Assembly (NCBI GenBank): GCA_963820525.1
Contig: CAWGAA010000001.1
Span: 2,144,001-2,208,000, forward strand
Source of the DNA: an uncultured Spirochaetota bacterium
GTDB lineage: Bacteria; Spirochaetota; Spirochaetia; SZUA-6; Fen-1364
Reading direction: 5' to 3'
DNA: 64,000 nucleotides
Positions 17,879-53,396 of this stretch are shown here, piece by piece. Positions within the stretch are counted from its first letter, which is position 1, and every line of letters starts with the position of its first letter. The translations under genes were made by a program, and so were the position numbers. The notes below the pieces were generated by a model, which did not search any database, was not told where the DNA came from, and was given only the letters and a program-made list of their open reading frames with translations.

Positions 17879-17881
17879 GCC

Positions 17882-28821: not shown

Positions 28822-30102
28822 TTAGAGGGATTTCATCAGGGCGTCATAGTGAGCGGCAATTGTTTTTTCAATGTCTTCGGGGGTATGCGCCAGGGAAAGG
28901 AAGACCGCCTCGTACTGCGAGGGGGCGAGGGAGACCCCGTTTTCGAGCATGCGAGAGAAATATCGCGAAAACTTGTCCGTGTCCGAGGTCCTGGCCGAAT
29001 CGGCGTCGAACACTTTAGCGGCGGTGAAAAACATGCACATCATCGAGCCGACGCGATTCAGGCTGTACGGGAGGCCCAGGTCCTTCAGATTGGCGGCGAA
29101 GCCTCCCTCGAGCATCGCGGCTTTCCGCTCGAGAGCCTCGTAGGCGCCGGGAGCCTTGAGGATCGAGATCGTCGCCAGGCCGGCCGCCAGGGCGACGGGA
29201 TTTCCCGAAAGGGTGCCGGCCTGGTACACGGGGCCCTGCGGCGCCAGGAGCTCCATGATGCCGGCCCTGCCGCCGAACGCGCCGACGGGGAATCCTCCGC
29301 CGATGATCTTTCCCAGGCAGGTGAGATCCGGCTTGATTCCGTAGAGCTCCTGGGCTCCGCCCAGCGCCACCCTGAATCCGGTGATCACCTCGTCAAAGAT
29401 CAGAAGGACGCCTTCCCGCTGCGTCAGCGCCCTGAGGTTTTTCAGGAAATCACCCCGGGGCGGAATGACCCCGATGTTGCCCGCCACGGGCTCGACGATG
29501 ACGGCGGCCACCCTGCCCCGATGCTTCTCGAGCAGGCGCTCCACGGAGCCGATGTCATTGTAGCGCGCCACCAGGGTGTCCTGCGCCGTCGCGCGGGTCA
29601 CGCCGGGGCACTGTGAAATGCCGTAGGTGGCCAGCCCCGATCCGGCGCTCACCAGAAACCCGTCCGCGTGGCCGTGGTAGCACCCGTCGAACTTGATGAC
29701 GGCGTCCCTTCCCGTGAAGGCCCTCGCCAGGCGCACGGCGCTCATCGTCGCCTCGGTGCCCGAGTTGACCATCCGCACCCGCTCGATCGAGGGGTAGATC
29801 TCCGTGATGAGCCGGGCCATCTCGAGCTCCAGCTCCGTGTTGGCGCCGAAGCTGGTGCCTTTCGGCACGATGGCGCAAACCGCCTCGATCACCCGCGGAT
29901 CCGCGTGGCCGAGAATGAGGGGCCCCCAGGAACAGATGTAGTCGATGTACTCCCGGCCGTCCACGTCGACGATGCGCGAGCCCCTGCCGCTCTCGATGTA
30001 CAGGGGAGTCCTTCCGACCGACCTGTACGCGCGCACCGGGCTGTTTACGCCGCCCGGAATGTACCGCAGGGCTTCGCGGAACAGGCTCTCAGATCTCTTC
30101 AT
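28822..30102 (-). CDS. hemL: Glutamate-1-semialdehyde 2,1-aminomutase
   Basis: IPGGVNSPVRA, SWGPLILGHA, NSGTEATMSA, FDGCYHGH, FDEVITGFR, LGKIIGGG (PLP Lys), YQAGTLSGNP. Confidence 0.95.
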   Translation of the reverse strand: MKRSESLFREALRYIPGGVNSPVRAYRSVGRTPLYIESGRGSRIVDVDGREYIDYICSWGPLILGHADPRVIEAVCAIVPKGTSFGANTELELEMARLITEIYPSIERVRMVNSGTEATMSAVRLARAFTGRDAVIKFDGCYHGHADGFLVSAGSGLATYGISQCPGVTRATAQDTLVARYNDIGSVERLLEKHRGRVAAVIVEPVAGNIGVIPPRGDFLKNLRALTQREGVLLIFDEVITGFRVALGGAQELYGIKPDLTCLGKIIGGGFPVGAFGGRAGIMELLAPQGPVYQAGTLSGNPVALAAGLATISILKAPGAYEALERKAAMLEGGFAANLKDLGLPYSLNRVGSMMCMFFTAAKVFDADSARTSDTDKFSRYFSRMLENGVSLAPSQYEAVFLSLAHTPEDIEKTIAAHYDALMKSL

Positions 30103-30709
30103 GGCGGCTCCCGCCATCGGAGCCTGATCCCAGCACCTCGCCCTCCGCCTTCCACTTGCGGAAAAGCTCCAGCTCGATGCCGTAGAGGTCCAGGATCTTG
30201 CCGATGGTATGGTTCACCAGCTCCCCCACCGTGCTCGGCCTGAAGTAGAAGGCGGGAACGGGCGGCAGGATCACCGCCCCCATCTCCGTGGCGCGCTCCA
30301 TGAGCCTGAGGTGCCCGATATGGTACGGGGTCTCGCGCACGGCCAGCACCAGCCTGCGCCGCTCCTTGAGGGTGACGTCCGCCGCGCGGTCAAGAAGTGT
30401 CGAGCAGCCGGAGTTGGCTACAGCGGAGAGAGTCCGGATGGAACAGGGGATCACCACCATCCCGTCGGCCGGGAAGGTGCCGCTGGAAATGCGCGCGGCA
30501 AGGTCCTCGTTGTCGTAGACGAAGGAGGCCAGGGAGGTGACCTCGCTCAGGGGATACGAGGTCTCGATATCGATCGTCCTCTCCGCCCACCGGGTTACCA
30601 CCAGGTGCGTCTCCACGCGTCCCTTCAGCGCTTCCAGCATCCGGATGCCATAGATGGCGCCCGATGCCCCCGTGATGCCGACGATCAATCTCTTCGTTCC
30701 AAAGGCCAC
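30089..30709 (-). CDS. ubiX: Flavin prenyltransferase
   Basis: GTG start. IVGITGASGAIYG, ARISSG, VIPCS, RAADVTLKERRRLVLAVRETP, PPVPAFY. Confidence 0.93.
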   Translation of the reverse strand: MAFGTKRLIVGITGASGAIYGIRMLEALKGRVETHLVVTRWAERTIDIETSYPLSEVTSLASFVYDNEDLAARISSGTFPADGMVVIPCSIRTLSAVANSGCSTLLDRAADVTLKERRRLVLAVRETPYHIGHLRLMERATEMGAVILPPVPAFYFRPSTVGELVNHTIGKILDLYGIELELFRKWKAEGEVLGSGSDGGSRHEEI

Positions 30710-30714
30710 TGTTC

Positions 30715-31764
30715 CTACTCTCCCTTCGAACCGAAGATCCTGTGCGCCCTTCCCGCCAGCTGGAAGAGCCGGAAGGCCTGATGCCTGAGAAGCGCTGTCT
30801 GGACGCGGTGGCGGATGCGGGAGCCGTGGAAGTCCGTCATGCCGATCTTGGAAAGAAGGCAGTACAGCATGTGGTCTTCCGCTCCCGGCCTTCCCACCGC
30901 CGTCCCGCGGAATATCGCATCGCTCCTCATGGAAATGGCGCTGACGCGGAACAGGCGGCAATCGGGGTTGACGCTTGTAACCCCCGCGTAATCCATGTAG
31001 GGGCCGTCGCTCACCGGCCTTCCGGTCTCGATAATGCCCTCCAGGACGATCTCGGATGATGCGGGGACTTCCATTGCGATGGTGGAGCACTTCGTGAGCT
31101 CCACCGGCTTTCCGGCAAGACCGCCGGCAAGGGCGAGCTCGTCCACGCCGTACGGAGGCGCGGCGCCGGCAGAGATCATGAGCGTCTCGCTCACCCCGAT
31201 GGCCACCGCCATGGCGAGCGGCGCGCCGGCCTTCTCCGCCTTGGCGACGTGCCGGGAAAGGTGGCTCCTCGGAGAGAAGCTCACCGTGGCCGCATCCTTT
31301 CCCGCCAGCATCATCCGGTATACCCCGACGTTCCGCCTCCCCGACTCGGGATCTACCGTGATGTTCAGGTGCCACGTGCCGACGTAGCGCTGGCCGTCTT
31401 CCCTGCTCCACCACGGAACGGGCAGCGCCGTGAGGTCGATGTCCCCGCCGGTAATGACGAGCTCCTTGACCGGCGCCCGATCCACCGTCACCGGCACGAT
31501 GGGGGAGCGGAACCTCTCCGCCACGACGCGGGCCGTTTCCCCCAGCGGCGAGCTTTCCTCAAGGCCGAGAGCCAGTGCGATCGTGGCGGGCTGGATCAGC
31601 CCATTGGTGAAGAGCCTCTTTCCGGGATAGCCGGCGATGTTCTCGAAGAGAAGGGGGGATCGCGTGGCTTTCAGGATGTCCCCGATCTCGTATTTCCAGC
31701 TTACCTCCCGCGTGACGCGCGTCAGGCGGCCGGAGCGCTCCAGGACCGAGATGAACTGCCGCAT
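30715..31764 (-). CDS. UbiD-family prFMN-dependent (de)carboxylase, unusually short (349 aa)
   Basis: LLFENI, DLTALPVP...DG..Y, NVGVYRM, VAIG, VPASSEIVLEG, DGPYMDYAG. Adjacent to ubiX. Confidence 0.88.
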   Translation of the reverse strand: MRQFISVLERSGRLTRVTREVSWKYEIGDILKATRSPLLFENIAGYPGKRLFTNGLIQPATIALALGLEESSPLGETARVVAERFRSPIVPVTVDRAPVKELVITGGDIDLTALPVPWWSREDGQRYVGTWHLNITVDPESGRRNVGVYRMMLAGKDAATVSFSPRSHLSRHVAKAEKAGAPLAMAVAIGVSETLMISAGAAPPYGVDELALAGGLAGKPVELTKCSTIAMEVPASSEIVLEGIIETGRPVSDGPYMDYAGVTSVNPDCRLFRVSAISMRSDAIFRGTAVGRPGAEDHMLYCLLSKIGMTDFHGSRIRHRVQTALLRHQAFRLFQLAGRAHRIFGSKGE

Positions 31765-31827
31765 ATCCGCTTCCCCTTTTTCCTTGAAAACCGTTTTCGA
31801 TCAAAGACCGCAGTCATCTCAATACTC

Positions 31828-32784
31828 TTAATACTCCATGCGGATGGTCAAGTGTTTCTTGAAGCCGTCCACCGCGGCAAGCCACGTGCCATCCTCCATC
31901 TGGACGGGATCCACGTGATGCATCCCGTGCCTCTCCCAGCCGGTGCCGTGCCCGCGCACGATCGGCGTTGATCGCGCGCCCTCCTCCCGGTAGCTCGTCC
32001 GGGAGAGCTCGACTATCCTGATGGCCCGCACCGACTTGCCGTAACCGCGGCAACCGTCCTGGGCAAACCTCACAATGCCCTGCGGGGTCACGATAACCCT
32101 TCCTCCCGGCCGCGCTATCGAGGAATCCCCCTGGACAATGGGATTTCGCGGGTGGGAAACCCACGGCCCCGGGAGGCTTTCGGCATAGTAGAGCCGAAGC
32201 TCGTCGGACTTTCCGGCCTGCACGCTGCTGAACATCCACCACAGGCCGTCGTAACAGAACAGGGAGGTGTCGGCGAACTCACCCTCCAGAAGGTCGGCGA
32301 CATGCCGCCAGTCCCTCGGGAAGGCCTGTGCGCTGTAGAGGCGGATTCTGCCTGCCGCGATGCTCTCAGGGACGAGGTAGTGCCGTCCCTCCGCCGAGAA
32401 GACATAGGGATAGGAGAGATGGTACGGCTCGGCCAGCACTATTCCCCCATAGTTCCACCGCAAACCGTCGGGGCTCCAGGACATCCCGATCTCTCCCTTT
32501 CGGGAGAGTGAGTTCAACACCTCGTAGAACATGTACCATGTGCCGGCGTACCGGACAATGAATGGATCCGCCACGAACCGCGCGGGCACGTCGCGCACGT
32601 GGGTCCGGGTGATGACGGGATTGGAGGCCCGCGCATCCGGCGAAAGGCTGTTCGGCGCGTGTCCCGAATAGATTCCGATGGCATACTCCTGCATCGTATC
32701 GAAGCTGAGCCGATGCCTGCGCAGGAATAGGAAGCCCGCCACCGCGACGACGGCGATGGCGAGGACGATAAGGGCGTATTTCAT
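31828..32784 (-). CDS. Membrane-anchored five-bladed beta-propeller (GH43-like / GINT1 N-terminal-like) protein
   Basis: N-terminal TM. NPVIT, FVADPF, HLSYPYVF, LVPES, HPRNPIV, ARPGG, GMHHVD. Confidence 0.75.
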   Translation of the reverse strand: MKYALIVLAIAVVAVAGFLFLRRHRLSFDTMQEYAIGIYSGHAPNSLSPDARASNPVITRTHVRDVPARFVADPFIVRYAGTWYMFYEVLNSLSRKGEIGMSWSPDGLRWNYGGIVLAEPYHLSYPYVFSAEGRHYLVPESIAAGRIRLYSAQAFPRDWRHVADLLEGEFADTSLFCYDGLWWMFSSVQAGKSDELRLYYAESLPGPWVSHPRNPIVQGDSSIARPGGRVIVTPQGIVRFAQDGCRGYGKSVRAIRIVELSRTSYREEGARSTPIVRGHGTGWERHGMHHVDPVQMEDGTWLAAVDGFKKHLTIRMEY

Positions 32785-32801
32785 GACCTTCCCTTGCCTT
32801 T

Positions 32802-33953
32802 TCAGGCGCTGCGTCTCTCCGCGGCCGACCGCGCTTTCTCCGCGCTCTTTTCCGAGAGCTCCCTGTACATCCGCTCGTGCGCCTGCACGAAGTTCCTGAA
32901 ATGGAAACGCTCCTCGACGATCTGCCTGCCCCGCTCCCCCATCAATCGGGCTTTTACCGGGTCGCCGAGAATGGAGATGAGGGCCCCGGCGAGCTTGTTC
33001 GGCTGGAAGGGGGGAACGAGCAGGCCGGTGCGGCCGTCTTCCACCACCTCGGAGATTCCACCCACGTCGGATGCAACCACGGGAAGCCCTGAAGCCATTG
33101 CCTCGACGATCGCAACGCTGAGCCCTTCGGTGCGGGAGGGAAGGACGAAGAGGTCCATCCGGGCAAGCTCGTCGAAAACCTCTTTCCGGTAGCCCGCGAA
33201 CTCCACGGCGTCCGAGAGGCCGATCTTTCGGGCGTACCCCTGCAGACGTCCGGCAAGGGGGCCGTCTCCGACAACGAGAAGGCGCGCCCGGGGGAAGCTC
33301 TCCCGAACCCGCTTCATGGCATCCAGGAGATCAACGTGCCGCTTCTCCTCGCTCAAGCGCGCCACGACGCCGATGACGGGAGCGCCGGGATCCCTTTGCT
33401 CTCGCGATTTGCCCGTCGACTTGGCCCCGCCGAAGGCGGGATAGATGATCCGGTAGGTATCCAGGTTTCTCGCGCCCACCCAATCGCGGCGCACCGCGTC
33501 CGCCACGAACACGCGACAGTCGGCCTTATCGCTCACCCAGTTGTTGAGCGGTTTGAGGAAAGCATCCCGGAATCTTCGCAACCTGCTGGGAGCCTGATTG
33601 CTCGTCGTGAGCTCGCAGGAGATGACCGCCGGCACGCCCGCGCGCCGGGCGGCGATTCCGCCGTAGATGTTGGTGTTCAGGCAGTAGGTCTGGACGATAT
33701 CCGGCGCGAGCCTGCCGAACAGGCTCGCGAGCTTCCCGATGAGGGCGGGGTTCTGCCAGCCCTCGGTATCCAGGTAGTACATGGGTATGTCGAGGCTGTC
33801 GAACTGATCGCTGATCTCGGCGGAGCGGTGCCCGTAGATGCAGACGCTCATGGCGAACCGGCTTCTGTCGATGGTGCGCGCCAGCGTGAGAAGATTGTCG
33901 TGGATCCCGTGAAACAGCCGCACGTCCTTCCAGACGTGCAGAACCTTGATCAT
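32802..33953 (-). CDS. GT4 glycosyltransferase
   Basis: VARLSEEKRH, VGDGPL, FVLPSRTEGLSVAIVEAMASGLPVVASDVGG. Confidence 0.92.
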   Translation of the reverse strand: MIKVLHVWKDVRLFHGIHDNLLTLARTIDRSRFAMSVCIYGHRSAEISDQFDSLDIPMYYLDTEGWQNPALIGKLASLFGRLAPDIVQTYCLNTNIYGGIAARRAGVPAVISCELTTSNQAPSRLRRFRDAFLKPLNNWVSDKADCRVFVADAVRRDWVGARNLDTYRIIYPAFGGAKSTGKSREQRDPGAPVIGVVARLSEEKRHVDLLDAMKRVRESFPRARLLVVGDGPLAGRLQGYARKIGLSDAVEFAGYRKEVFDELARMDLFVLPSRTEGLSVAIVEAMASGLPVVASDVGGISEVVEDGRTGLLVPPFQPNKLAGALISILGDPVKARLMGERGRQIVEERFHFRNFVQAHERMYRELSEKSAEKARSAAERRSA

Positions 33954-33966
33954 GATCTCGCCTCCG

Positions 33967-34944
33967 TTATTTCGTGCCGAGCCAGCGCGCCGCGTCCTTC
34001 GCGCTGTAGGAGATGATGAGATCGGCCCCGGCGCGCTTGAAGGCCGTCAACGCCTCCAGGGTGATCTCCCTTTCGTCGATGCGTCCCAGGGAGGCCGCCG
34101 CCTTGATCATCGCGTACTCGCCGCTCACGTTGTACACCGCGAGGGGAACGCCGAACGTCCGCTTGGCCCGGGAAACGATGTCGAGATAGAACATGGCGGG
34201 CTTCACCATGACGATGTCGGCCCCTTCCTCGATGTCGAGTGAGATCTCGCGCATCGCCTCCTCCGCGTTGCCGTAGTCCATCTGGTGGGACTTCTTGTCG
34301 CCGAAGCTCACCGCGGATTCGGTTCCATGCTTGAAGAACGGATCGTAGAGCTTGGAGGCGAACTTGGCCGAATAGCCCATCACCGCCGTCTCTGTGAAGC
34401 CGTTCTCGTCCAGGATCGACCTGATGGCCTTCACCTGGCCGTCGAGCATGGCGGCGGGGGCCACGATGTCGGAACCGGCCCGCGCGTGCGAAAGGGCGAC
34501 CTTCCCGAGCAGCTCCACGCTCTTGTCGTTTAGCAGATAGCCGTTGGCAAGGATGCCGCAGTGCCCATGCGGCGTGTATTCGCAGAGGCAGACGTCGGTG
34601 ACAACGACGATCCCCGGCACCTTCTCCCGGATCGTCTCCACGGCCTTCTGCACGATGCCGCCGGGGTCATAGCTTTCGCTCGCCATCTCGTCGCGCTTCT
34701 CGGGAATCCCGAAGAGCAGGACCGAGGGAATGCCCAGGTCCCGGATCTCCTTCACCTCGTCGGCGAGCCGGTCGATGGACAGGTGGTAGTTTCCGGGCAT
34801 CGAGTCGATCTCCTCTTTGACGCCGTATCCGTGGACGACGAACAGGGGGGAGATGAAATCGCGGGGGGCGAGCGACGTCTCGCGGACCATCTCGCGAATC
34901 GCGGGCGTCCGCCGCAGCCTTCTCATGCGCGTGACGGGGAACAT
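33967..34944 (-). CDS. hemB: Porphobilinogen synthase (ALA dehydratase), Zn-type, with divergent lid region
   Basis: RMRRLRR, DVCLCEYTPHGHCG (Zn ligands), YSAKF and MVKPA (both Schiff-base Lys), YNVSGEYAMIK, KRAGADLIISY. Confidence 0.93.
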   Translation of the reverse strand: MFPVTRMRRLRRTPAIREMVRETSLAPRDFISPLFVVHGYGVKEEIDSMPGNYHLSIDRLADEVKEIRDLGIPSVLLFGIPEKRDEMASESYDPGGIVQKAVETIREKVPGIVVVTDVCLCEYTPHGHCGILANGYLLNDKSVELLGKVALSHARAGSDIVAPAAMLDGQVKAIRSILDENGFTETAVMGYSAKFASKLYDPFFKHGTESAVSFGDKKSHQMDYGNAEEAMREISLDIEEGADIVMVKPAMFYLDIVSRAKRTFGVPLAVYNVSGEYAMIKAAASLGRIDEREITLEALTAFKRAGADLIISYSAKDAARWLGTK

Positions 34945-34961
34945 TGTTTTTCTCCTTTTCT

Positions 34962-36572
34962 TCAGGCGCTCTTCGCGCCGGTGCGTGTGATATGGAAGGG
35001 AAGGATCTTGCCGCTTCGCGTCGGAATCGGGTAGTCCCGCTTTATGCGCAGGGTCCGCGCCTGCCCCCACATCTCGGGGCCCGACTGGGTCCACGATTCA
35101 GGGCTGACGGTGGCGGTCTTGAGGAATCGGATGAAGCTCTTTGCGATCTCCTCCTCGTCCACCTCACCGACCCGCGGGCTTACCAGGAGCTTCAGCCGTG
35201 TGAGGCCGCGCGCGTCCTCCTCTTCCAGCAGCTGGTAGTCGGTGCTCTGGCCGCCGTACTTCCGGGGAAGCTCGCGCTCCACGATCCTGATGAAATCGGT
35301 GTCGACGAACGTGACGCCTTCCCCGGTGAGCTTCTCGTAGCTCCTGATATCCGAGATGTGCGTATCGAAGCCGAGCCGGCCGAAGGGGCAGGAGCACTCC
35401 CCGCTCCACAGCTCGCCGTAATCCCCCATGCCGACGTTGAGCAGGATCTTGGGCGCCTCGTAGAGCAGGGAGGTGAAGAGGAAGGAATCCACCTCCGTGT
35501 CGCTGTGCTCCACCCGGAGGCGGTGCGGGATGATCGCCGTGGTGTCCTTGAGGATGTGACAGTGGTCGCTCGAGGGGTAGGGGCTGTCGCATCCCGCCGC
35601 GATCACCCCCGCTTCAGAGATCCCATAGATGGGCACCGCGATCGCCCCGGCGGCCTCTATCTCGGCCTTCTTCTGCTGGGTGAGCGGCTCCCCCGTTACC
35701 AGGAAGCGCGTGCCGTTGATCCTGAGGCCGTTCTCGGCCGCGGCCATGCAGACCCGCACGGCGGAGCTGGCAAAGGTGTAGATGACGCAGCTGGGGTTTT
35801 CCTCCAGCGCGCGGGAAGCCCACAGTGCGATATCGTACGCGTCGTTGAGCCCCACGAACTCGGGCCGCGCGAGGGGCACGCCGCTCAACCTGCTCATCAG
35901 GAAGATGTAGCTCACCCCCAGCCTCTTCTCCCAATTCACCTTCATGTGGCTCTTCTCCACCTGGGAGAACCACTTGCGGGGAGGGTTTCCGATGTGGGCG
36001 AAGCGCAGGGAGGAATTGATCCCCGGCGCGCCGGGGAAGACGGGAAACCAGTTGGCGATGGGAGCCGTGAGGGCGCCGTGGACATTGAGGATGAACGCGT
36101 CATAGAGAGAGCGTTGGGTGAGATAGTCGAAGTCGATGCGGACCCGGGTCCCCGCGCTGCGGGTGGCGCCGCTTCCCACCTCATAGGCCGCGGAGATGAA
36201 GGGGTTGTCGAACGCCTTCTCTTCGAGGCGGAAGCGCAGGCCGTCCCGCACGACCTCGAATTTCCCCTTGAACTCGTCCACGGTGTAGTACACCCCGTCC
36301 TTTCTCAGGGTCTCGAGGGCTCCCTCGATTCCCGCGTGCTCCACCCAATGGGAAATTTCGGTCATGCCGATCTTCTTGGCGGCGAGGAGGGGCAGGTAAG
36401 GACTTTTCGGATAGCCGAAAACTCCCTTCTCCATCAGCCTCAGGAAGTTCTCCTGGCGGCGGGCGATCCGGTCCGTGAACGCCGCCCGCGCCTGCTCCAG
36501 GGCCTGCTCCGGCGTGGTTCGATCCCTCAAATACTTCATGAGGCCGAAAACGAATCTCGAGTACTTGCGCAT
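34962..36572 (-). CDS. Divergent adenylate-forming (PaaK/GH3-like ANL) ligase
   Basis: P-loop-like GSGATRSAG, YGISEAG, NVGMGDYG, IRSYEKLTGEG. C-terminal TRSGKILP carries the ANL Lys. Confidence 0.65.
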   Translation of the reverse strand: MRKYSRFVFGLMKYLRDRTTPEQALEQARAAFTDRIARRQENFLRLMEKGVFGYPKSPYLPLLAAKKIGMTEISHWVEHAGIEGALETLRKDGVYYTVDEFKGKFEVVRDGLRFRLEEKAFDNPFISAAYEVGSGATRSAGTRVRIDFDYLTQRSLYDAFILNVHGALTAPIANWFPVFPGAPGINSSLRFAHIGNPPRKWFSQVEKSHMKVNWEKRLGVSYIFLMSRLSGVPLARPEFVGLNDAYDIALWASRALEENPSCVIYTFASSAVRVCMAAAENGLRINGTRFLVTGEPLTQQKKAEIEAAGAIAVPIYGISEAGVIAAGCDSPYPSSDHCHILKDTTAIIPHRLRVEHSDTEVDSFLFTSLLYEAPKILLNVGMGDYGELWSGECSCPFGRLGFDTHISDIRSYEKLTGEGVTFVDTDFIRIVERELPRKYGGQSTDYQLLEEEDARGLTRLKLLVSPRVGEVDEEEIAKSFIRFLKTATVSPESWTQSGPEMWGQARTLRIKRDYPIPTRSGKILPFHITRTGAKSA

Positions 36573-36639
36573 TTTCCCTTTCCTCCAAAATCGATCCGCA
36601 GCCGCCCGCGGAAGTGCGAGAGTGCCCGGCGGGATCAGC

Positions 36640-37845
36640 CTAGGATCCGAAACGGATGGCGTTGGTGAGCTCGCGGACCTTCTCGATCGTGTTGTGCATG
36701 ATGCGGTTCACGATCGACTTGGTGAGGGACTCCACCATCCCCTTGGCCTCGTCGGGCAGGGCGCTGCCGGTGGCGAAGGATGCGAAGCCCTCCTGGCGGA
36801 CGTTCTCCGCCATGTCCTTCAGGGAAAGGATCACGGGGGCCAGGTCCGCGGCGTCGAGCTTCTTCCAGACGTCCTTCACCCTTTCGCCGATCATCCCCGC
36901 CGCCTTTTCCGCCTCCCTCTCCCGGATCGCCCTGCTCTCTTCCACCACGGCCTTCAGGTCGTCGATGTTGTAGAGGTGCACGCCCGGGATCTCTTTCACC
37001 CCCGGGTCTATCGTGCGGGGCACCGAGATGTCGATTATCATGACGGGCTTGCCGCCCAGCGAATCCGCGATGTCGCTCTTTGAAATCACGTAGCCCGGGG
37101 AGGCGATCGAGCTGATCACGATGTCGGTCTTGGGGATGTACTCCGCCGCCTCGTACAGCATGATGGGGGTCCCCTTGATGCTCTCCGCCAGGCGGACGGC
37201 GCGCTCGAAGGTGCGGTTGGCGACGAACACCTGCTTCACGCCGTTGTCCATGAGGTTTCTCACGGTGAGCTCCGCCATCTCTCCGGCGCCCAGGATCAGT
37301 GCCGTCTTTTCCGCGATCTCTCCCAGCGCCCGCTTCGAGAGGGCGACGGCGGCGTAGCTCACCGAGACGTTGGCGCGCCCGATATCGGTGGAAGAGCGGA
37401 CCTTCTTCACGAGGGCGAATGCCTGGGGGAAGAGGCGCTTGAAAACGGGCCCGACGACTCCTGCTTCCAGCGCGATCCGGTAGGCGTCCTTCACCTGCCC
37501 GAACACCTGGGGCTCCCCCACGATCATCGAATCGATGCCCGCCGCCACCTTGCAGAGGTGCTCCACCGCTTCCTCGTTGGTATGGACGTAGAGCGTATCG
37601 TCAATGCACTCCTTCACGCCGTGGAAATCGCAGAGAAAGGAGGCGAGGGCCGAGGGTTCCGCCCCGTCCAGGACGGCGTACAGCTCGACCCTGTTGCAGG
37701 TGGACAGGATCACGCACTCCGCCACCCCCTGCTGCTCCCTGAGGGCGGAGAGCGCCCGGGGGAGCGCCTCATCCTCGAAGGCGAACCTCTCGCGCAGGTC
37801 CACCGCCGCAGTTTTGCTATTCATTCCCAGTACGGATACGATCAT
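36640..37845 (-). CDS. hemA: Glutamyl-tRNA reductase
   Basis: LSTCNRVELY (catalytic Cys), GIDSMIVGEPQVFGQVK, VSVSYAAV, LGAGEMA, ANRTFERA, DISVPRTID, YNIDDL. Confidence 0.95.
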   Translation of the reverse strand: MIVSVLGMNSKTAAVDLRERFAFEDEALPRALSALREQQGVAECVILSTCNRVELYAVLDGAEPSALASFLCDFHGVKECIDDTLYVHTNEEAVEHLCKVAAGIDSMIVGEPQVFGQVKDAYRIALEAGVVGPVFKRLFPQAFALVKKVRSSTDIGRANVSVSYAAVALSKRALGEIAEKTALILGAGEMAELTVRNLMDNGVKQVFVANRTFERAVRLAESIKGTPIMLYEAAEYIPKTDIVISSIASPGYVISKSDIADSLGGKPVMIIDISVPRTIDPGVKEIPGVHLYNIDDLKAVVEESRAIREREAEKAAGMIGERVKDVWKKLDAADLAPVILSLKDMAENVRQEGFASFATGSALPDEAKGMVESLTKSIVNRIMHNTIEKVRELTNAIRFGS

Positions 37846-40060
37846 GCAGTGCCTCTCTTCGCTCGCCGCTGTCATCGGAGCCGGCCATGGCCAATTCCCT
37901 CCAGAAGCGCGCGACGTCGCGCGGGAGGGCGTTCCAGTACAGCCCCGTGTACCTTTCACGAAGGTAGAAAAGAAAATCCCGGTACCACGTGTGCGGATAT
38001 TCGTCGATTTGCCGTCTCTCCCCGTTCAACAGCATGTAATCGGGGTGGGTATTGAGCAGAGCCATTCCCCCTTTTTCGGCAACCCAGTCCAGCTTCTCCC
38101 GCCAGACCCTGGCATCGTGGTGTTGAAGCACCACGAAGAGCGTGCTGTCCTGCGGCAGGGTGTAGGGCAGCTCGACGTATCCCGAGCTGCCGTTCGCCAC
38201 CCACAGGGGGAAGATCGTTCCGATCCCGTCGGGCTGGGGCTCGAAGGGGTCCGTGTCGAACGTGGAGGCGTCATACTCGATCGCCAGGTCCTTCAGCCAC
38301 TCGAGATTGTGCTGCATGGCGGCGGAGCGGAACCCGACGGCGCCCCACTCCCGGAGATACGCGTTGATCCGCGCGGCCCGGGAGGTGAAAATCCGGCGTG
38401 ACTGGTACAGCTTCCCATCATGCGACAGGTCGTGCACGCCGATCTCGAAGCCCTGAGCCGTCAGCTCGGTGCGCACCCGGGGATCGTCTTCATAGCGTTC
38501 GGGAACGAAGTTGAAGGATGAAACGAATCCGAGCTCCTTCTCCATGGCCGCGACATGCGCGCAGCGCTCCACGCCCCGAAGACCCTCCACGTCGTGCGTG
38601 AGAACGAGCGCGAACTTCTTGCCGTCCGGCCACCCCTTCCAGTGGAGCGGCCGGGATTGGGATCGAGGGTCGATGGGCCACACGATGTCGACATTGCGCG
38701 CGACCCGGCGGGCAAACATGCGGCGAACCGCGATCTGCGCGCTTCGGGGGATGAGGGGCTTCATAAAATAGTAGAATCGGCGCGCCAGCTTCCGCCCGCT
38801 GGATGTGGCGCCTGATTCCCGCTTTTCCAGAAGCCAGTTGTACGCCGTGAGCAGGTTCTCCGACACGATCTCCCAGGCCAGCTCGCGCTCCACCCTGGCA
38901 CATCCCCGCTCACCCATGGTTGAGCGGCACGCGGGATCGTCCATGAGCCTGGCCACGGCCTCCGCGTACTCTTCGACATCATTGGGCTTCACATACAGGG
39001 CGGCATCCCGCGCCGTGAAGCGCGTCTCCTTCAGGTCGAAGCTGACGATCGGCTTGGAGTACATCATGTACTCCATGACCTTGATCCAGGTGGAATGATC
39101 GTTGAGGGGGTTCGAGGGGTTCGGGTCCAGACAGATATCGGCCGCGGCGAGATAGTGAAGGAGCTCCTGCCGTGGAATGAGGCCGGTGAAACGCACCGAC
39201 TCCTCGAGGCGGAGGTCCTTGACCAGCCCCTTCATGTCCTCCAGCACGTCCCCCTGGCCAATGGCGATGCACTGGAAATCCTCCCTGCCCAGCCCGTAGC
39301 GGAGGTGGTGCAGAGCGTGGAGCATGTAGTCCAGCCCGTCCTGCGGGCCCATGGTGCCGATGTACACAAGGAGCTTCCTGCCGCCCATCTGCGGGCCGGG
39401 CTCGCGGGAATCGCGCTGGAACTCGAATCGGGCAGGGCCGTTTCGAACGATGAAGATCTTCTCGGGGCCGATCCCCCCGCGTTCCATCTCGATGGCCCGG
39501 TAGCTCTCGTTGGTGGCGATCACGAGATCCGAGTGGCGGATGACGAGCGCTTCGATGCCATGGAGAATCCTGTAGATGAAGTTGCGGCGCACCCGGTAGC
39601 GGGAGAGGTAGAGCTCGGGCTCCAGATCGTGATGATCGAATATCACCTTCTTGCCCAGGAGCCTATAGCCGAGGGAGAGGAGGCACAGGATGTTGGGGGG
39701 ATTCGATGAATGGATGACCTGGAACCCGTCGCGCACGGCCACCATGGGGAAGATGAACAGGCACACCAGGGCGAAATAGAAGTACTCCACGATGTAGCCG
39801 AACGCGGAGAGGGCCCGATAGAAGAGCACCCCCAGCCGGGAGGTGCTTCGCGTGCTCTTCTTGAACAGGTTGATCATGGGCATTGTATAGACGGTGATGC
39901 CCCGAACGACTTCCCTTCCCAGGTTCCCGTGGGGGCTCAAGGCAAGGACGCTCACCTTGTACCCGTTGTCGGCGAGCTTGAACGCCTCCTTGCTCACCCG
40001 CGGGTCCGCGAGGAACGGCTTGTCCACGAACATCAGGACTTTTCGCGAACTCTTTTTCAT
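37817..40060 (-). CDS. GT4 glycosyltransferase fused to polysaccharide deacetylase-like domain
   Basis: GT4: DPRVSKEA, FDHHDLEPELY, GPQDG, IKVMEYM. C-terminal domain: WPDGKKFALVLTHDVE, EIGVHDLSHDG, GFRS, ELPYTLPQD, LNTHPDY. Confidence 0.88.
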   Translation of the reverse strand: MKKSSRKVLMFVDKPFLADPRVSKEAFKLADNGYKVSVLALSPHGNLGREVVRGITVYTMPMINLFKKSTRSTSRLGVLFYRALSAFGYIVEYFYFALVCLFIFPMVAVRDGFQVIHSSNPPNILCLLSLGYRLLGKKVIFDHHDLEPELYLSRYRVRRNFIYRILHGIEALVIRHSDLVIATNESYRAIEMERGGIGPEKIFIVRNGPARFEFQRDSREPGPQMGGRKLLVYIGTMGPQDGLDYMLHALHHLRYGLGREDFQCIAIGQGDVLEDMKGLVKDLRLEESVRFTGLIPRQELLHYLAAADICLDPNPSNPLNDHSTWIKVMEYMMYSKPIVSFDLKETRFTARDAALYVKPNDVEEYAEAVARLMDDPACRSTMGERGCARVERELAWEIVSENLLTAYNWLLEKRESGATSSGRKLARRFYYFMKPLIPRSAQIAVRRMFARRVARNVDIVWPIDPRSQSRPLHWKGWPDGKKFALVLTHDVEGLRGVERCAHVAAMEKELGFVSSFNFVPERYEDDPRVRTELTAQGFEIGVHDLSHDGKLYQSRRIFTSRAARINAYLREWGAVGFRSAAMQHNLEWLKDLAIEYDASTFDTDPFEPQPDGIGTIFPLWVANGSSGYVELPYTLPQDSTLFVVLQHHDARVWREKLDWVAEKGGMALLNTHPDYMLLNGERRQIDEYPHTWYRDFLFYLRERYTGLYWNALPRDVARFWRELAMAGSDDSGERREALHDRIRTGNE

Positions 40061-40067: not shown

Positions 40068-41375
40068 TCACCAGCAGATTCCGTCGTAGCGGGTCGGCAT
40101 GACCTGCTCGAACCGCGGCGCGCTCACGAGGTCCACCACGCGCACATGGCCGTTGACGCCGGCGAGCACCTCCTCGGGATTTTTCGTCTTGCTCCCCAGA
40201 ACGATCACCTCGGACTCCTTCAGCGTCTCCGCCAGAGATTCGCGCAGGAGCTGCGAAATGTGGGGGATCACCTTCTCGATATAGCGTTTGTTGGACCCAT
40301 GGAGGCGGGAATAGGAGACCTCCTCGTCGAAGACGGAAACCTCGTACCCCTTGCCCAAGAGCTTTTCGATCAAGTCGACCATGGGGCTCTCCCGCAGGTC
40401 GTCGGTCCCCGCCTTGAAGGAAAGCCCGATGATCCCCACCTTCTTCTTGCGGGTCTTCTTGATGAGCTCGAAGGCCCTCTCCACCTGCAGGTGGTTGCTG
40501 GGCAGGACGGCCGACAGCAGGGGGGTCTCAACGTCGAGCTCCCGCGCCTTGTGCACGATTGCCCGCAGGTCCTTGGGAAGGCACGAGCCGCCGAAGGCGA
40601 AGCCGGGCTTCAGGTACGTGGGGGAAATGTTGAGCTTCCTGTCCTGGCAGACCAGATCCATGACCTCGCGGCTGTCGACGCCGGCCGCCTTGCAGAGCGT
40701 GCCGACCTCATTGGCGAAGGTCACCTTCAGGGCGTGGAACGCGTTGGAGACGAACTTCACCGTCTCGGCGCTTTTCAGCCCCGCGCGGAGCACCGGGGCC
40801 TTGACGGCGCGGTAGAGGCGCGCCACGACGTCCCCGCTCTTTCCGTCGAGCTGGCCGATGACGGTGAAGGGAGGATCGTAGAAATCCACCACGGAGGTCC
40901 CTTCCCTGAGGAACTCGGGGTTCATGCAAACGCCGAAATCGACTCCCCGCCGCTTTCCCGAGTGCTTTTCCAGGAGGGGGATCAGCACGCCTTCCACGGT
41001 GCCGGGGAGCACCGTGCTCCTCACGTTCACCACGTGGTAATGGCGGCTTGTCGCGAGGAACTCTCCCAGCTGCTGTATCACTTTCTTGACGAACGTCAGG
41101 TTCTGGCTTCCGTTGTCGTTGCTGGGCGTGCCGACGCAGATCAGGGAGACGTCCGCCTCCACGATCGAGTTCCTGCTCGCCGTGAGCCTGCCGGAAGAGA
41201 CCGCTTCCTTCAGCTTCTCCTCGAGGCCCGGCTCCCGGATGGGGCTCTTGCCGGCGTTGATCATGTCGACCTTCAGAGGGTCCACGTCGTAGCCGTGGAC
41301 CGTGTGTCCGTCGCACGCCAGGCACGCCGCCGAAACACAGCCGACGTACCCCAGCCCGAAAATATTGACCTTCAT
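40068..41375 (-). CDS. NDP-sugar 6-dehydrogenase (GDP-mannose/UDP-glucose dehydrogenase, AlgD-like)
   Basis: GLGYVG, CVGTP, RSTVLPGT, NPEFLREG, KVTFANE, LKPGFAFGGSCLPKD, FKAGTDDLRESP. Confidence 0.93.
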   Translation of the reverse strand: MKVNIFGLGYVGCVSAACLACDGHTVHGYDVDPLKVDMINAGKSPIREPGLEEKLKEAVSSGRLTASRNSIVEADVSLICVGTPSNDNGSQNLTFVKKVIQQLGEFLATSRHYHVVNVRSTVLPGTVEGVLIPLLEKHSGKRRGVDFGVCMNPEFLREGTSVVDFYDPPFTVIGQLDGKSGDVVARLYRAVKAPVLRAGLKSAETVKFVSNAFHALKVTFANEVGTLCKAAGVDSREVMDLVCQDRKLNISPTYLKPGFAFGGSCLPKDLRAIVHKARELDVETPLLSAVLPSNHLQVERAFELIKKTRKKKVGIIGLSFKAGTDDLRESPMVDLIEKLLGKGYEVSVFDEEVSYSRLHGSNKRYIEKVIPHISQLLRESLAETLKESEVIVLGSKTKNPEEVLAGVNGHVRVVDLVSAPRFEQVMPTRYDGICW

Positions 41376-41377
41376 CT

Positions 41378-42553
41378 TCACTCCTCCCCAAACCGTGAAA
41401 TGAGAATGTCCGCGATCCTGACAGCCGCCTTCCCGTCCCAATAGGGCGGGGCCGGGGGGGCTTCGACCATCCCCCGGGCCAGCTGGGAGATCGCGGCCGC
41501 GACGATCGGCTCCCTGCCGGTCCCCGCGATCACGTTCGTGCCGCGGCTCACCGTCACGGGGCGCTCCGTGGAATCCCGCAGCGTTACGCACGGGACCCTC
41601 AATACCGTCGTCTCTTCCTGGATCCCGCCGGAATCCGTGAGAACCACCCGCGCGGCCGACATGAGCTTCAGGAAATCCAGGTAGCCCAGCGGCTCGATGG
41701 CATGAATTCCCTCGAGGCATTCCGCGCCGCCGGAGGAGAGATCTCCCCAGCCGAGGAGCCGCTGCAGGCCGAAGGCTTCGATGCGGGCCCGCGTGCGGGG
41801 GTGTATGGGAAACACGATGGGAAGCTCCCGCGCCACCTGGGCCAGGGCTTCGAGGATCCCGCACAGCGCCTCCGCGTCATCCACCGACTCCGCGCGGTGG
41901 AGCGTGAGAACCCCGTAGGGGCAGGGCGCCGAGCCGTTTCGGGCGAGCCCGAGTTGGTGGAGGATCCGCGAGCCCTGCGCCTTCTGCCGATGCGCCAGGA
42001 GCGTGTCGATCATGACGTTTCCCACGAAGTGGATCTTCTCCTCGGCGACGCCCTCACGCCGGAGATTTTCACCGGCGCTCTCCTCCGTGGTGAAGAGGCA
42101 GTCGGAGATGGCGTCGGTGAGGATCCTGTTGATCTCCTCCGGCATCCTGCGGTCGAAGCTTCGAAGTCCCGCCTCGACGTGAACGACGGAGATGCCCATC
42201 TTCACGGCGACAAGCGCGCAGGCAATGGTCGAGTTGACGTCGCCCACCACCAGGACGTGCGTGGGACGCTCCGAAAGGCAAACCTCCTCGAAGCGCTTCA
42301 TGATCTCGGCCGTCTGCGCCGCATGAGAGCCGGAGCCGACGTCGAGGTTGACGTCGGGCTCGGGAAGGCCGAGCTGCTCGAAGAACAGCTCGCTCATCCG
42401 CCTGTCGTAATGCTGGCCCGTGTGAACCAGGATCTGCTCGATTCCTTGTCGGCCCAGCTTCCGCTCCTGTTCTGAAGCCGCGTGCAGGGCCTCCATGATG
42501 GGCCCGATCTTCATGAAGTTCGGCCGCGCGCCCACGACGTTCACGATCTTCAT
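41378..42553 (-). CDS. wecB: UDP-N-acetylglucosamine 2-epimerase (non-hydrolysing)
   Basis: VGARPNFMK, HTGQHYD, GDVNST, HVEAGLRS, PEEINR, TDSGGIQEE, TERP. Confidence 0.95.
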   Translation of the reverse strand: MKIVNVVGARPNFMKIGPIMEALHAASEQERKLGRQGIEQILVHTGQHYDRRMSELFFEQLGLPEPDVNLDVGSGSHAAQTAEIMKRFEEVCLSERPTHVLVVGDVNSTIACALVAVKMGISVVHVEAGLRSFDRRMPEEINRILTDAISDCLFTTEESAGENLRREGVAEEKIHFVGNVMIDTLLAHRQKAQGSRILHQLGLARNGSAPCPYGVLTLHRAESVDDAEALCGILEALAQVARELPIVFPIHPRTRARIEAFGLQRLLGWGDLSSGGAECLEGIHAIEPLGYLDFLKLMSAARVVLTDSGGIQEETTVLRVPCVTLRDSTERPVTVSRGTNVIAGTGREPIVAAAISQLARGMVEAPPAPPYWDGKAAVRIADILISRFGEE

Positions 42554-44475: not shown

Positions 44476-44479
44476 GGGC

Positions 44480-45718
44480 TTACCTCCCCGCCGCCGCCAT
44501 GGGATGGGGCTGAACGCGCTCGCCGGCTTCTCTGAGCAGCCACAGGGTCAGGCTCCTGAAGGTCTGCGACTGCGCCCAGCGGTGGTATGGCACCTTGTTC
44601 CAGCCCACGACCATTTTCCTGGTCAGGAAAGAACCGTCCGGCTTCTGCCAGCGCGAAAGAAGATCGTCGCCAACCGCCTCAATGATCTCGCGGCACCGTG
44701 GGTAGCGGTCTTCCAGCAGGAAGCAGAGGTTGAGGCACTCCGCGTAGTCGTAGAGCTCCCGCGTATGGAGCGTCATGCGGGGAGCAACCGCGAAGGGAAT
44801 GGGAAGAGAGCTCCTGTCCAGCAGGTGCGAGGTGTAGAACGCGAAACCCTTGTCGATGGCCTGCGAGCAGGAAGAGCCGCCGGTCAGCCGCTCGATCTTC
44901 GCCAGGCTCTTCAGAACGAAGCAGGTATGGAAGTTGTCGACGAAGGTCTCCGAGCCGTCCGCCGCGTAGCACCAGGAGCCGTCGGGATTCTGGCTTGCGA
45001 CGACGAAATCGACGTACTTCCGGGCGGCCGCGACGTAGTCTTCGCGGCTGAAGCGGTACCCCGCATCGGTGAGGAGAAACGCCCTGTAGGCAGTGGCGTT
45101 GACCACGTGGGAGTGGTCCTCATCGCGGGTGGTGTAGGAGCTTGCAATGCCGAGGGGGGGCAGGGGATTGTCGTGAAGGTCGCGGAAGGCGTGATCCGCT
45201 ATGGAGCGCATGATCCGAAGCTTTTCCTCGTCCCCGTCCAGCTCGTAGCCGGCGGCGAACGCCTCGTAGACGTACGGTGTCGTGGTGATGAGCGGGGTCT
45301 GGGCGGGGACGGTCCCCTTGGTCCCGACCCAATCGAAGGGATATCCCCAGCAGTAATTCCGTTCGCCGGGGCAGCGCATCCTCTTCAGCGCTTCCAGGTA
45401 GATCACACCGCGCTGGCGGTACACCTCCGCCCCCGTGGCTCGATACAGGTTGAAGAAACCCATCGCGTAATGCGCGTCGGCTATGGGAAAGCGGGATTTG
45501 CCGCGGAACAGCGCCCGGGTTGCCGGCAGGAACGAATCCAGAAGGACGAAAGGGGCAACCGCCGCGATCCCCCAGCGGTGCGCGTAGTACAGCGCCTTCG
45601 CCCTGCCGCCTCCGGAAGAAGCCCACAGATCGTACTGGTCCTGGGAAACCTCCCCGAACGAGTCGAGCCAGAGGATGAACCGGCTGATGGAGGAACGAAG
45701 CGAATCATGCGTATCCAT
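44480..45718 (-). CDS. Polysaccharide-locus (alpha/alpha)6-barrel-like protein of unknown function
   Basis: WGYPFDW, SQNPDGSWCY, DNFHTCFVL, QKPDGSF, PYHRWAQ. Coupled within the operon. The fold is inferred. Confidence 0.6.
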   Translation of the reverse strand: MDTHDSLRSSISRFILWLDSFGEVSQDQYDLWASSGGGRAKALYYAHRWGIAAVAPFVLLDSFLPATRALFRGKSRFPIADAHYAMGFFNLYRATGAEVYRQRGVIYLEALKRMRCPGERNYCWGYPFDWVGTKGTVPAQTPLITTTPYVYEAFAAGYELDGDEEKLRIMRSIADHAFRDLHDNPLPPLGIASSYTTRDEDHSHVVNATAYRAFLLTDAGYRFSREDYVAAARKYVDFVVASQNPDGSWCYAADGSETFVDNFHTCFVLKSLAKIERLTGGSSCSQAIDKGFAFYTSHLLDRSSLPIPFAVAPRMTLHTRELYDYAECLNLCFLLEDRYPRCREIIEAVGDDLLSRWQKPDGSFLTRKMVVGWNKVPYHRWAQSQTFRSLTLWLLREAGERVQPHPMAAAGR

Positions 45719-51455: not shown

Positions 51456-51520
51456 ATGTTTGTCGTTCCTTGGAGGCCCGTCAGGATCGGGCCTTTGCGA
51501 TCGGTTTGTTTTTTTCAAGA

Positions 51521-51560
51521 TTTTCCGCGGGGGCAGGCGAACGCCGGCTCCCGTGGAAAA
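51521..51560. other. Intergenic stem-loop just downstream of the beta-helix gene
   Basis: TTTTCCGCGGGGGC-AGGCGAACGCC-GGCTCCCGTGGAAAA imperfect inverted repeat. No U-tract follows it on the coding (-) strand. Confidence 0.55.
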
Positions 51561-51567
51561 GGGATAT

Positions 51568-53139: not shown

Positions 53140-53177
53140 GGCACACCCCTTTCGCGGAAAGCCGTGAAAGAATTTAA

Positions 53178-53192
53178 GCATGAGATGTGCCA
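53178..53192 (-). promoter_or_regulatory. Sigma54 -24/-12 promoter internal to the polysaccharide locus
   Basis: Minus strand reads TGGCACATCTCATGC(TT), about 40 nt before ATG 53139, with an AT-rich tract upstream. Confidence 0.8.
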
Positions 53193-53345
53193 AGATCCAA
53201 TCAGCGCCATCTTTCGAATATCCATTGTCCACTATTTCCTTTTATTGTTGAAAAATAAAGCGCCCTGCAAAAAATGTCTCGAGCCTGCCCGCTTCGCCTG
53301 GGCTTCTGCACCCTCGCTCGCCGATTACATCCCTGTACTCGTTAT

Positions 53346-53363: not shown

Positions 53364-53396
53364 GGACGTAACTCAGGGGCGGTGCAGCGGCCCGCC

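Follow-up and report, generated by a model that had tools for sequence, protein, structure and literature searches.

In the C5 tetrapyrrole trunk, HemA, HemL and HemB are followed by HemC and HemD. Here we describe a run of genes on the minus strand of a 64,000-nucleotide stretch of DNA from an uncultured Spirochaetota bacterium (the window), in which hemA, hemB and hemL stand among genes for a ligase (lig536), a short UbiD, its partner UbiX and two glycosyltransferases, within a polysaccharide locus. This run, at positions 28822–40060, is called the cassette below, and its HemB is called HemB*. It shares the first three enzymes with the C5 trunk, all of them scoring above the NCBIfam equivalog or subfamily cut-offs. 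It differs from the trunk in that its genome lacks hemC, hemD, hemE and the gene for uroporphyrinogen methyltransferase (SUMT), in that HemB* belongs to a separate clade with a loop signature of its own, and in that the hem genes are interleaved with those of the ligase, UbiD/UbiX and the glycosyltransferases and form a second copy in other carriers. We consider it highly probable that the cassette leads to a porphobilinogen-derived end product that is not a tetrapyrrole.

An ALA-derived unit (ALA, 5-aminolevulinate) also occurs in the C5N-unit pathway of the moenomycin and manumycin type. There a heme-enzyme paralogue reserved for this pathway makes the unit, ATP serves to activate it, and an amide links it to a larger molecule, in moenomycin to the uronic acid of a glycolipid. 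This is the nearest known logic (see PMC4525017), with a cyclizing ALA synthase, an acyl-CoA ligase and an amide synthetase as its enzymes. The C5N pathway takes the C4 route with an ALA synthase that depends on pyridoxal phosphate, cyclises ALA-coenzyme A (CoA) and involves no HemB, no UbiD and no pyrrole. The cassette, in contrast, encodes the C5 route with a glutamyl-tRNA reductase (hemA) and hemL, and its key conserved enzyme is a porphobilinogen synthase, which suggests a unit of another kind, a pyrrole formed from two molecules of ALA.

UbiD-type carboxylases are paired with ligases in anaerobic aromatic degradation, as in benzene or naphthalene carboxylase with benzoate- or naphthoate-CoA ligase, where activation by ATP pulls the carboxylation. 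The logic that we propose for the cassette is similar, in that an unfavourable carboxylation dependent on prenylated flavin mononucleotide (prFMN) would be pulled by ATP activation. The degradative pairs, however, are catabolic and use full-length, multi-subunit UbiDs and CoA thioesters, whereas the cassette would be biosynthetic and make its own substrate.

A pyrrole is the substrate of HudA (PA0254), which is described as a reversible, prFMN-dependent pyrrole-2-carboxylate decarboxylase (PMC7976604). The cassette UbiD shares the UbiD fold with HudA (Z = 42.4, root-mean-square deviation 2.1 Å for 333 residues, 29% identity) and keeps the N-x-G-x-Y-R and acidic motifs; the first rank of HudA among the matches is not meaningful, because all UbiD structures were tied within ~4 Z units. 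Unlike HudA and the other known UbiDs (~500 residues), the cassette protein has ~350 residues and lacks the oligomerisation domain. With the PaaK-family ligases (PaaK1/2, BT_0428, NatL2, AjiA1, ClxA) lig536 has the fold and a YG-x-SE-type motif in common, but the identity is 12–16%, there are ~100 extra N-terminal residues and no Pfam or NCBIfam model matches. In full-text searches of the literature, neither a hemB-UbiD-ligase cluster nor a glycan substituent derived from porphobilinogen was found to have been described.

Tetrapyrrole genes of the host genome

The host assembly (5.05 Mb, four contigs, 96.7% complete, 2.3% contaminated) carries the window on its largest contig. Profile searches of the genome returned exactly one ALAD and one GlutR_N match, both in the cassette, so that hemA and hemB are sole copies and a second, canonical hem set is absent. 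A reading of the window made beforehand from its sequence alone (the sequence-only reading) had noted that hemC, hemD, cobA and hemE are missing from it. This absence extends to the whole genome. Neither hemC (PF01379, Porphobil_deam) nor hemD (PF02602, HEM4) had a match in the genome; the same searches found hemC in 11 and hemD in 12 of 14 control genomes. The sole TP_methylase is RsmI, not SUMT, and the best URO-D match is MtaA/CmuA-like, with a hemE score of 54.5 bits against a cut-off of 303. Other hemL-like matches in the genome are class-III aminotransferases with identities of only 26–38%. Open reading frames (ORFs) with at least three CXXCH motifs were not found in the genome.

Two relatives of the same family show what a canonical arrangement looks like. 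They carry hemA, then an ORF of 562–592 residues that contains the hemC match, then hemB, so that hemC lies ~1–2 kb from hemB in one cluster. These intermediate ORFs have the size of a fused hemC/D, and a tblastn search with them detected no hemC-like sequence in the host genome. With the ORFs of the relatives' hem clusters, tblastn retrieved the cassette hemA (32–34% identity) and the cassette hemB (52–55%). Across 61 genomes of the same order, ALAD was present in 31 and hemC in 29, the two co-occurring; the host, with hemB and without hemC, is the clear exception among the well-assembled ones. The idea that hemC and hemD lie elsewhere in the host is thus not borne out by either type of search. 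As judged from the assembled sequence, the genome encodes nothing predicted to carry porphobilinogen on to tetrapyrroles.

Eight URO-D-family genes were counted in the host, the best of which is MtaA/CmuA-like according to NCBIfam. Genes for corrin-ring synthesis were not found in the genome. As the eight URO-D-family genes encode partners of corrinoid-dependent methyltransferases, the host probably salvages corrinoids. A further part of the window (1989–11845, plus strand) encodes subunits resembling those of Mrp antiporters and the 20-kDa and 49-kDa subunits of NADH dehydrogenase together with a HycI protease. These genes form a cluster for an energy-converting [NiFe] hydrogenase of the membrane-bound kind, in keeping with an anaerobic life without cytochromes. 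DNA nearly identical to the host's occurs in six sequencing runs from five studies, in which at least half of the sampled words were contained. The runs listed are all from freshwater-sediment and wetland metagenomes, and no RNA run is among them.

A conserved core of ligase, HemB and UbiD

To survey the occurrence of the cassette, an alignment of 20 lig536 homologues was searched against species-representative genomes. This gave 100 relatives, of which the best 80 loci were kept, and the proteins of the window were counted in these loci by tblastn (Table 1). The 80 species genomes belong to at least seven phyla (Acidobacteriota, Fibrobacterota, Verrucomicrobiota, Spirochaetota, Aminicenantes, Dormiibacterota and Pseudomonadota). 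The sequence-only reading had named synteny in other genomes as a check; the juxtaposition of ligase, hemB and UbiD is strongly conserved among these species genomes. Where hemB is present it always lies directly downstream of the ligase gene. Five of the six loci without it end at a contig border, so that hemB is present behind the ligase gene in 74 of the 75 loci whose sequence continues far enough downstream, the exception being L098. The UbiD matches are co-directional and of the short form in 67 of 70 cases. The other three (L074, L084 and L086) lie on the opposite strand with 30–33% identity; L086, the only one of them scanned with Pfam, has a full-length UbiD beside an AMP-binding enzyme. 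An independent clustering of the ORFs of these loci yielded the ligase 76 times, hemB 66 times, UbiD 61 times and hemA 38 times, with nothing else above 19. By these counts, ligase, HemB and UbiD form the invariant core of the module.

The gene order in Fibrobacterota is close to that of the window: hemA, (hemL), ligase, hemB, GT4, amine oxidase, short ubiD, propeller, ubiX. In Acidobacteriota it is mostly ligase, hemB, (hemA), short ubiD. The amine oxidase is a flavin enzyme (PF01593, a family that includes protoporphyrinogen oxidase), and in 11 Fibrobacterota loci its gene separates GT4a from the short ubiD (for example L052:13784–15181 and L034:13758–15062). It also lies near the cassette in two Acidobacteriaceae loci (L039 and L035), and it has no homologue in the host genome. 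In those lineages its target for oxidation could be the pyrrole's aminomethyl group.

A HemB tree was calculated with a quick IQ-TREE search after removal of six duplicate rows and of rows with fewer than 280 aligned residues. It contains 89 sequences, 72 of them cassette-linked (including that of the window) and 17 from relatives or from elsewhere in carrier genomes. All 72 cassette HemBs, whatever the phylum of the host, fall on one side of a branch with an SH-aLRT value of 100 and a length of 0.65, and the 17 canonical sequences fall on the other. HemB* of the window thus groups with the 71 cassette HemBs of other phyla and not with housekeeping orthologues; it stands apart from the copies of its same-family and same-order relatives. 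Five other carrier genomes were analysed (three Acidobacteriota, one Fibrobacter, one Spirochaetota), and each of them contains one hemC and, outside the cassette, another ALAD. We accordingly class the cassette HemB as a dedicated paralogue. The cassette hemA is 40–46% identical to the cassette hemA of Fibrobacterota and Spirochaetota.

One relative of the same family (G021) has both an intact canonical hemA-hemC-hemB cluster and an extra ligase-hemB pair (G021:C68:1512-4076, L012/L014). In this pair the ligase gene has three in-frame stops and hemB is split in two frames, which points either to decay of a cassette copy or to an assembly error.

Aligned to solved ALADs, HemB* retains two lysines and the Cys-rich motif D-x-C-x-C-x-Y-x3-G-H-C-G, which we take to be the two Schiff-base lysines and the zinc site, respectively. 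It is therefore predicted to be an intact porphobilinogen synthase of the Zn type, belonging to a separate clade. This clade differs from the canonical sequences at several positions. The YGP-FR loop has a one-residue insertion (72/72 cassette, 0/17 canonical sequences), and in the same loop, YGP-FR(D/E)AA, the arginine is replaced by lysine to give YDPFFK(E/H)GT (69/72 and 0/17). GDR has become GDK (72/72 vs 3/17) and YQMD has become HQMD (72/72 vs 2/17). In addition APSDMMDGR is changed to APAAMLDGQ, with Ser replaced by Ala in 71 and Arg by Gln in 65 of the 72 sequences. None of these changes occurs in more than 3 of the 17 canonical sequences. The two altered arginines presumably hold the carboxylate of the A-side ALA. 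With changes at this site, the product may not be porphobilinogen itself. The terms A-side and P-side ALA are used as defined in PMC7725820.

The cassette UbiD aligns to positions 1–315 of the 438-position TIGR00148 model and to residues 9–339 of E. coli UbiD. According to Pfam it consists of UbiD_N and the prFMN-binding Rift domain only, and the oligomerisation domain UbiD_C is missing. Its AlphaFold model (pLDDT 92.6) was superimposed with VIA-align on UbiD structures with Z values of 38–42 for ~330 of ~500 aligned residues. Asn145, Gly147, Tyr149, Arg150, Glu209 and the segment D253-G-P-x-x-D258 are invariant in 20 sequences. The sequence-only reading had called the gene a short ubiD; the protein has 349 residues and keeps the catalytic motif, and it is predicted to be truncated yet catalytically complete. 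The clustered UbiD ORFs of the related loci (n = 61) have a median length of 384 residues; they are N-terminally over-extended and include three full-length forms. According to PMC8379154, the prFMN domain and the oligomerisation domain jointly form the active site of UbiDs, and in Fdc1 one of the key residues comes from the latter. The cassette UbiD would be open on one side, and it may need a partner protein or may accept a bulky, possibly tethered substrate.

Exactly one UbiX above the cut-off was found in the host genome and in each of the five other carriers. In the host, the Fibrobacter and the other Spirochaetota genome this only ubiX sits inside the cassette. In the three Acidobacteriota it lies elsewhere, and their cassettes have none. 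This distribution suggests that UbiX and UbiD are functionally tied to the module, and the filling of the host's ubiX gap by the cassette argues that the module was selected as a working unit. The cassette UbiD and UbiX are moreover the only ones of the host (ubiX is the single tblastn match), and the prFMN system appears from these genomes to be dedicated to the module.

The sequence-only reading had also called the ligase PaaK-like. Support for this comes from the fold, the evidence at sequence level being weak. In a phmmer search of the PDB, lig536 gave a weak match to ClxA, deposited as a phenylacetate-CoA ligase (E = 1e-4 over 114 residues). Its AlphaFold model (pLDDT 76, pTM 0.80) matched BT_0428 and PaaK1 in Foldseek with E = 1e-11, a probability of 1.00 and TM-scores of 0.5–0.6 normalised by target; the ester- or amide-forming enzymes NatL2, AjiA1 and ClxA followed at E-values of 1e-9 to 1e-7. 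The model thus supports the assignment of lig536 as a PaaK-fold, adenylate-forming enzyme with the two-domain ANL fold. As modelled, this orphan adenylating enzyme would be the invariant partner of the module.

The family of lig536 is large. A set of 5.8 billion proteins contains 981 homologues, of which the best 120 are 63–81% identical, ~530 residues long and unnamed. Among cluster representatives one exceeds 50% identity, and below it a large family extends at 32–46%; its cluster representatives number 1946 with an E-value limit of 1e-3 and 673 with one of 1e-30. No longer, fused forms (939–2680 residues) turned up in a search aimed at them, which is weak evidence. Of 401 sampled Spirochaetota genomes, five, including the host, gave a match to the profile of the family. 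The homologue P0117 bears the NCBI name of a protein from Chitinispirillum alkaliphilum, and a cultured carrier of the module thus appears to exist.

Paralogues of lig536, with identities of 35–45%, occur in three Spirochaetota genomes (L133, L134 and L135) as one, two or three copies in tandem. Each copy is followed by a gene for an NMT1/THI5-like binding protein and by genes for ABC or TRAP transporters, and P0234 (857 residues) is a fusion of a lig536 paralogue with an NMT1 domain. GT2 genes lie near the paralogues in L133 and L135, and Wzx and an amine oxidase in L133 only. The pairing fits a family in which each ligase adjoins the supplier of its acid substrate, a binding or uptake protein there and HemB* here. 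The ligase family thus seems to have a second system in these arrays, as yet unstudied.

The gene run and its polysaccharide context

Pfam and NCBIfam confirm every gene named in the sequence-only reading, in the order and at the coordinates given there (Table 1). The cassette is transcribed in the order GT4b, hemA, ligase, hemB, GT4a, propeller, short ubiD, ubiX, hemL.

Table 1. Features of the cassette and the adjoining upstream genes, with the number of related loci in which a homologue was found.
Feature	Positions	Strand	Evidence	Related loci
hemL, glutamate-1-semialdehyde 2,1-aminomutase	28822..30117 (start 30117 or 30102)	-	TIGR00713, 611 bits (cut-off 527)	7/80
ubiX, flavin prenyltransferase (prFMN maker)	30089..30709	-	NF004685, 244 bits (cut-off 188)	11/80
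Short UbiD, 349 aa	30715..31764	-	Pfam UbiD_N + UbiD, without UbiD_C	70/80 (67 short form)
GINT1_N / GH43-like beta-propeller	31828..32784	-	PF24793, 1.2e-56	13/80; 40-45% identical, adjoining short ubiD
GT4a, glycosyltransferase directly after hemB	32802..33953	-	Glycos_transf_1 + Glyco_trans_1_4	18/80; 33-40% identical, mostly directly after hemB, four phyla
hemB*, porphobilinogen synthase, cassette clade, Zn type	33967..34944	-	PF00490, 5e-137; NF006762, 463 bits (cut-off 297)	74/80
lig536, predicted PaaK-fold ligase, 536 aa	34962..36572	-	AlphaFold model + Foldseek	80/80
hemA, glutamyl-tRNA reductase	36640..37845	-	TIGR01035, 383 bits (cut-off 210)	40/80
GT4b, GT4 + 330-aa C-terminal domain	37817..40060	-	GT4 domains over residues 28-403	22/80 (C-terminal domain); 29-56% identical, stand-alone, often just upstream of ligase
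Upstream polysaccharide genes	40068..56551	-	Pfam; inner gene borders approximate	11/80 (WecB)

Tight packing with gaps below 70 nt and two overlaps had been reported for the run, and our measurements agree. Start codons were chosen with purine-rich upstream stretches, and the spacings rest on these starts; that of ubiX is a GTG at 30709 behind such a stretch. GT4b and hemA overlap by 29 nt, and ubiX and hemL by 14 or 29 nt, depending on the start of hemL. The gaps are 67 nt (hemA/ligase), 17 nt (ligase/hemB), 13 nt (hemB/GT4a), 17 nt (GT4a/propeller), 63 nt (propeller/ubiD) and 5 nt (ubiD/ubiX). Terminator-like sites are not enriched (9 seen, 9.3 expected from shuffles), and the GC content is uniform along the window.

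The reported continuity with a Wzx/Wzy locus is likewise real: the run goes on upstream to Wzy and Wzx without a change of strand. According to Pfam, the upstream genes encode, in this order, a UDP-N-acetylmannosamine (UDP-ManNAc) dehydrogenase, the epimerase WecB, an AsnB-type amidotransferase, two proteins without a family, a GT4, a heparinase II/III-like protein, another GT4, a beta-helix protein, Wzy and Wzx. A co-directional, closely spaced run from 28822 to 56551 thereby joins the cassette with glycosyltransferases, flippase and polymerase. The locus supplies sugars of the N-acetylmannosaminuronic acid (ManNAcA) type and amino sugars (WecB, dehydrogenase, DegT). Of the earlier label GT4-deacetylase for the first gene of the cassette, the GT4 part stands, and the deacetylase part is a weak lead for the C-terminal domain: a phmmer search of the PDB gave a polysaccharide deacetylase with E = 0.0095, and a feature search gave clusters in which 22–77% of the members carry Polysacc_deac_1.

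The association with glycan genes was also examined in 51 related loci of at least 19 kb by a seed-based blastp census within 10 kb; with two seeds out of frame, its counts are lower bounds. It found at least three polysaccharide-type genes in 26 loci, two in three, one in three and none in 19, i.e. two or more in 29 of the 51. Neighbours in other phyla include exosortase, a priming sugar transferase, Wzz/GNVR and NusG-like proteins, GT2, GT4, FemAB-like proteins, Wzx and Wzy. The association with polysaccharide genes is thus frequent and not universal.

Further genes of the window were noted on both sides of the run. Convergent with hemL and 32 nt from its stop codon, an ATP-grasp protein and a Pyr_redox_2 flavoprotein are encoded on the plus strand (26359–28790). 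The same pair (52–53% and 41–42% identity) lies 5–9 kb upstream of the ligase in the Acidobacteriaceae loci L062 and L087, and weaker ATP-grasp relatives (27–29%) occur in five further related loci. The pair may be part of the pathway. Beyond Wzx, positions 56143–58636 of the minus strand encode a PGA_cap (CapA-like) protein and another PaaK-like ligase, which resembles the DVU_1553 family with a score of 106 bits, short of the cut-off. The two suggest an additional non-sugar modification in the same polysaccharide locus. An hhalign comparison of this ligase with the lig536 family gave a probability of only 2.7%. Finally, positions 16769–19576 of the plus strand encode a phenylalanyl-tRNA synthetase of the archaeal/spirochaetal type. 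Its beta chain has B1, B5 and CLM domains. PheS has a full size of ~515 residues as judged by homologues, its start lying upstream of the ORF piece used; its best named relatives, 79–87% identical, come from metagenome-assembled genomes with the label Spirochaetia.

Proposed pathway and alternatives

We propose the following route for the cassette. HemA and HemL, which the profile scores identify as orthologues of the ALA-making enzymes, would provide ALA, and HemB* would condense it to porphobilinogen or a close analogue. The module is thus predicted to encode the sequence of reactions from glutamyl-tRNA through ALA to a porphobilinogen-type pyrrole with its catalytic residues intact. In the next step the short UbiD would use prFMN to add or remove a carboxyl group of the pyrrole ring. 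The simplest reaction would be carboxylation of the free alpha position, in analogy to HudA; decarboxylation of a ring carboxylate would be the alternative if HemB* makes another pyrrole. The ligase would then adenylate a carboxylate of the pyrrole with ATP. Two targets are conceivable, the carboxylate newly placed on the ring and the side chain, a heteroaryl acetate similar to phenylacetate. Handing the acyl group over to an amine or hydroxyl, the ligase would pull the unfavourable carboxylation forward. In this locus the acceptor would be a sugar of the Wzx/Wzy repeat unit, with the two adjacent GT4s, the propeller and the deacetylase-like domain acting on this sugar once it is modified.

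Our preferred interpretation, which we hold with moderate confidence, is therefore a self-sufficient, horizontally spread module that makes a monopyrrole as an end product and not as a heme precursor; in this organism the pyrrole would probably be attached to the polysaccharide. The sequence-only reading, with the hem enzymes, UbiD/UbiX and the ligase put to a non-heme use, is supported in this respect, and nothing that it had named as evidence against itself was found. Several points weigh against the interpretation. It is a guess which way the UbiD reaction runs and which carboxylate the ligase takes, and we infer the transfer of the pyrrole to a sugar. The HemB* loop assumed to bind the carboxylate of the A-side ALA is altered. 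Some loci with apparent room have no UbiD, and in our lower-bound census polysaccharide genes were missing from the surroundings of the trio in 19 of the 51 long loci. The trio stands among housekeeping or unrelated genes in L063 and L037, and a carrier protein (PP-binding)/thioesterase, an AMP-binding enzyme and a P450 lie nearby in some Acidobacteriaceae (L053 and L058). The genome is not closed at 96.7% completeness, and the HemB tree comes from a quick search.

Several of these points lead to an alternative that we judge unlikely and still take seriously. The same module could make a free or non-glycan pyrrole, such as a pigment, signal, cofactor, chelator or an adduct of a lipid or peptide, and its position among polysaccharide genes would be hitch-hiking in a variable, horizontally exchanged region. 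The loci without polysaccharide genes and those with unrelated or P450/thioesterase neighbours make a free or otherwise tethered metabolite possible, and the restriction of the invariant core to ligase, HemB and UbiD points in the same direction. In the window, however, the genes lie in the middle of an operon, tightly packed between glycosyltransferases. The placement of a GT4 directly after hemB is found in 18 loci of four phyla, the propeller accompanies the module in 13 loci, the deacetylase-like domain does so in 22, and 29 of the 51 long loci are of the polysaccharide or exosortase type.

A less probable variant concerns the product of HemB*. Its altered A-side pocket could take a different amino- or oxo-ketone, or ALA that the ligase has already conjugated through its carboxylate, to give another substituted pyrrole, from which UbiD would then remove, for instance, a ring carboxylate. 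This would account for clade-specific changes that occur in 65–72 of the 72 cassette HemBs, most of them in none of the 17 canonical sequences, and that affect the arginines assumed to hold the carboxylate. It would also suit the known UbiDs, which act on carboxylates placed directly on a ring or double bond; porphobilinogen has none. Both catalytic lysines and the zinc site are nevertheless retained, HemB* scores well above the NCBIfam cut-off for porphobilinogen synthase, the exchange of Arg for Lys preserves the positive charge, and the cassette hemA and hemL point to ALA as the only dedicated input.

That these are ordinary heme-precursor genes interleaved with polysaccharide genes, with hemC and hemD in the unassembled 3% or replaced by unrecognisable analogues, is very improbable and largely refuted: the three hem genes do score as equivalogs and hemA and hemB are sole copies in an unclosed genome, but hemC, hemD, hemE, SUMT and multihaem cytochromes are all absent together, hemC of the relatives lies within ~1–2 kb of hemB, HemB* belongs to the cassette clade and not to that of its own family, and the same arrangement is a second copy in all five other genomes.

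Returning to the preferred interpretation, we tentatively extend it, at somewhat less than even chances, to the carriers of many phyla. Porphobilinogen, so far known as nothing but the committed tetrapyrrole precursor, would then have a second, widespread fate: with the three enzymes of the module (HemB*, short UbiD and ligase), bacteria of many phyla would convert it into a monopyrrole building block and install this on extracellular polysaccharide. If true, such a use of porphobilinogen outside tetrapyrroles would be without precedent, and the substituent might represent a new non-sugar class on bacterial surface glycans. It would define three groups of enzymes: a porphobilinogen synthase clade with an altered loop, a natural UbiD without oligomerisation domain and a large ligase family outside Pfam. 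Since an apparent cultured carrier exists in Chitinispirillum alkaliphilum, the hypothesis is directly testable. The module would also explain the "orphan" hemA, hemL and hemB of heme-less anaerobes, which automatic annotation reads as a partial heme pathway, so that metabolic reconstructions are misled. Its carriers are abundant degraders of soil, peat, sediment and gut fibre (Acidobacteriota, Fibrobacterota).

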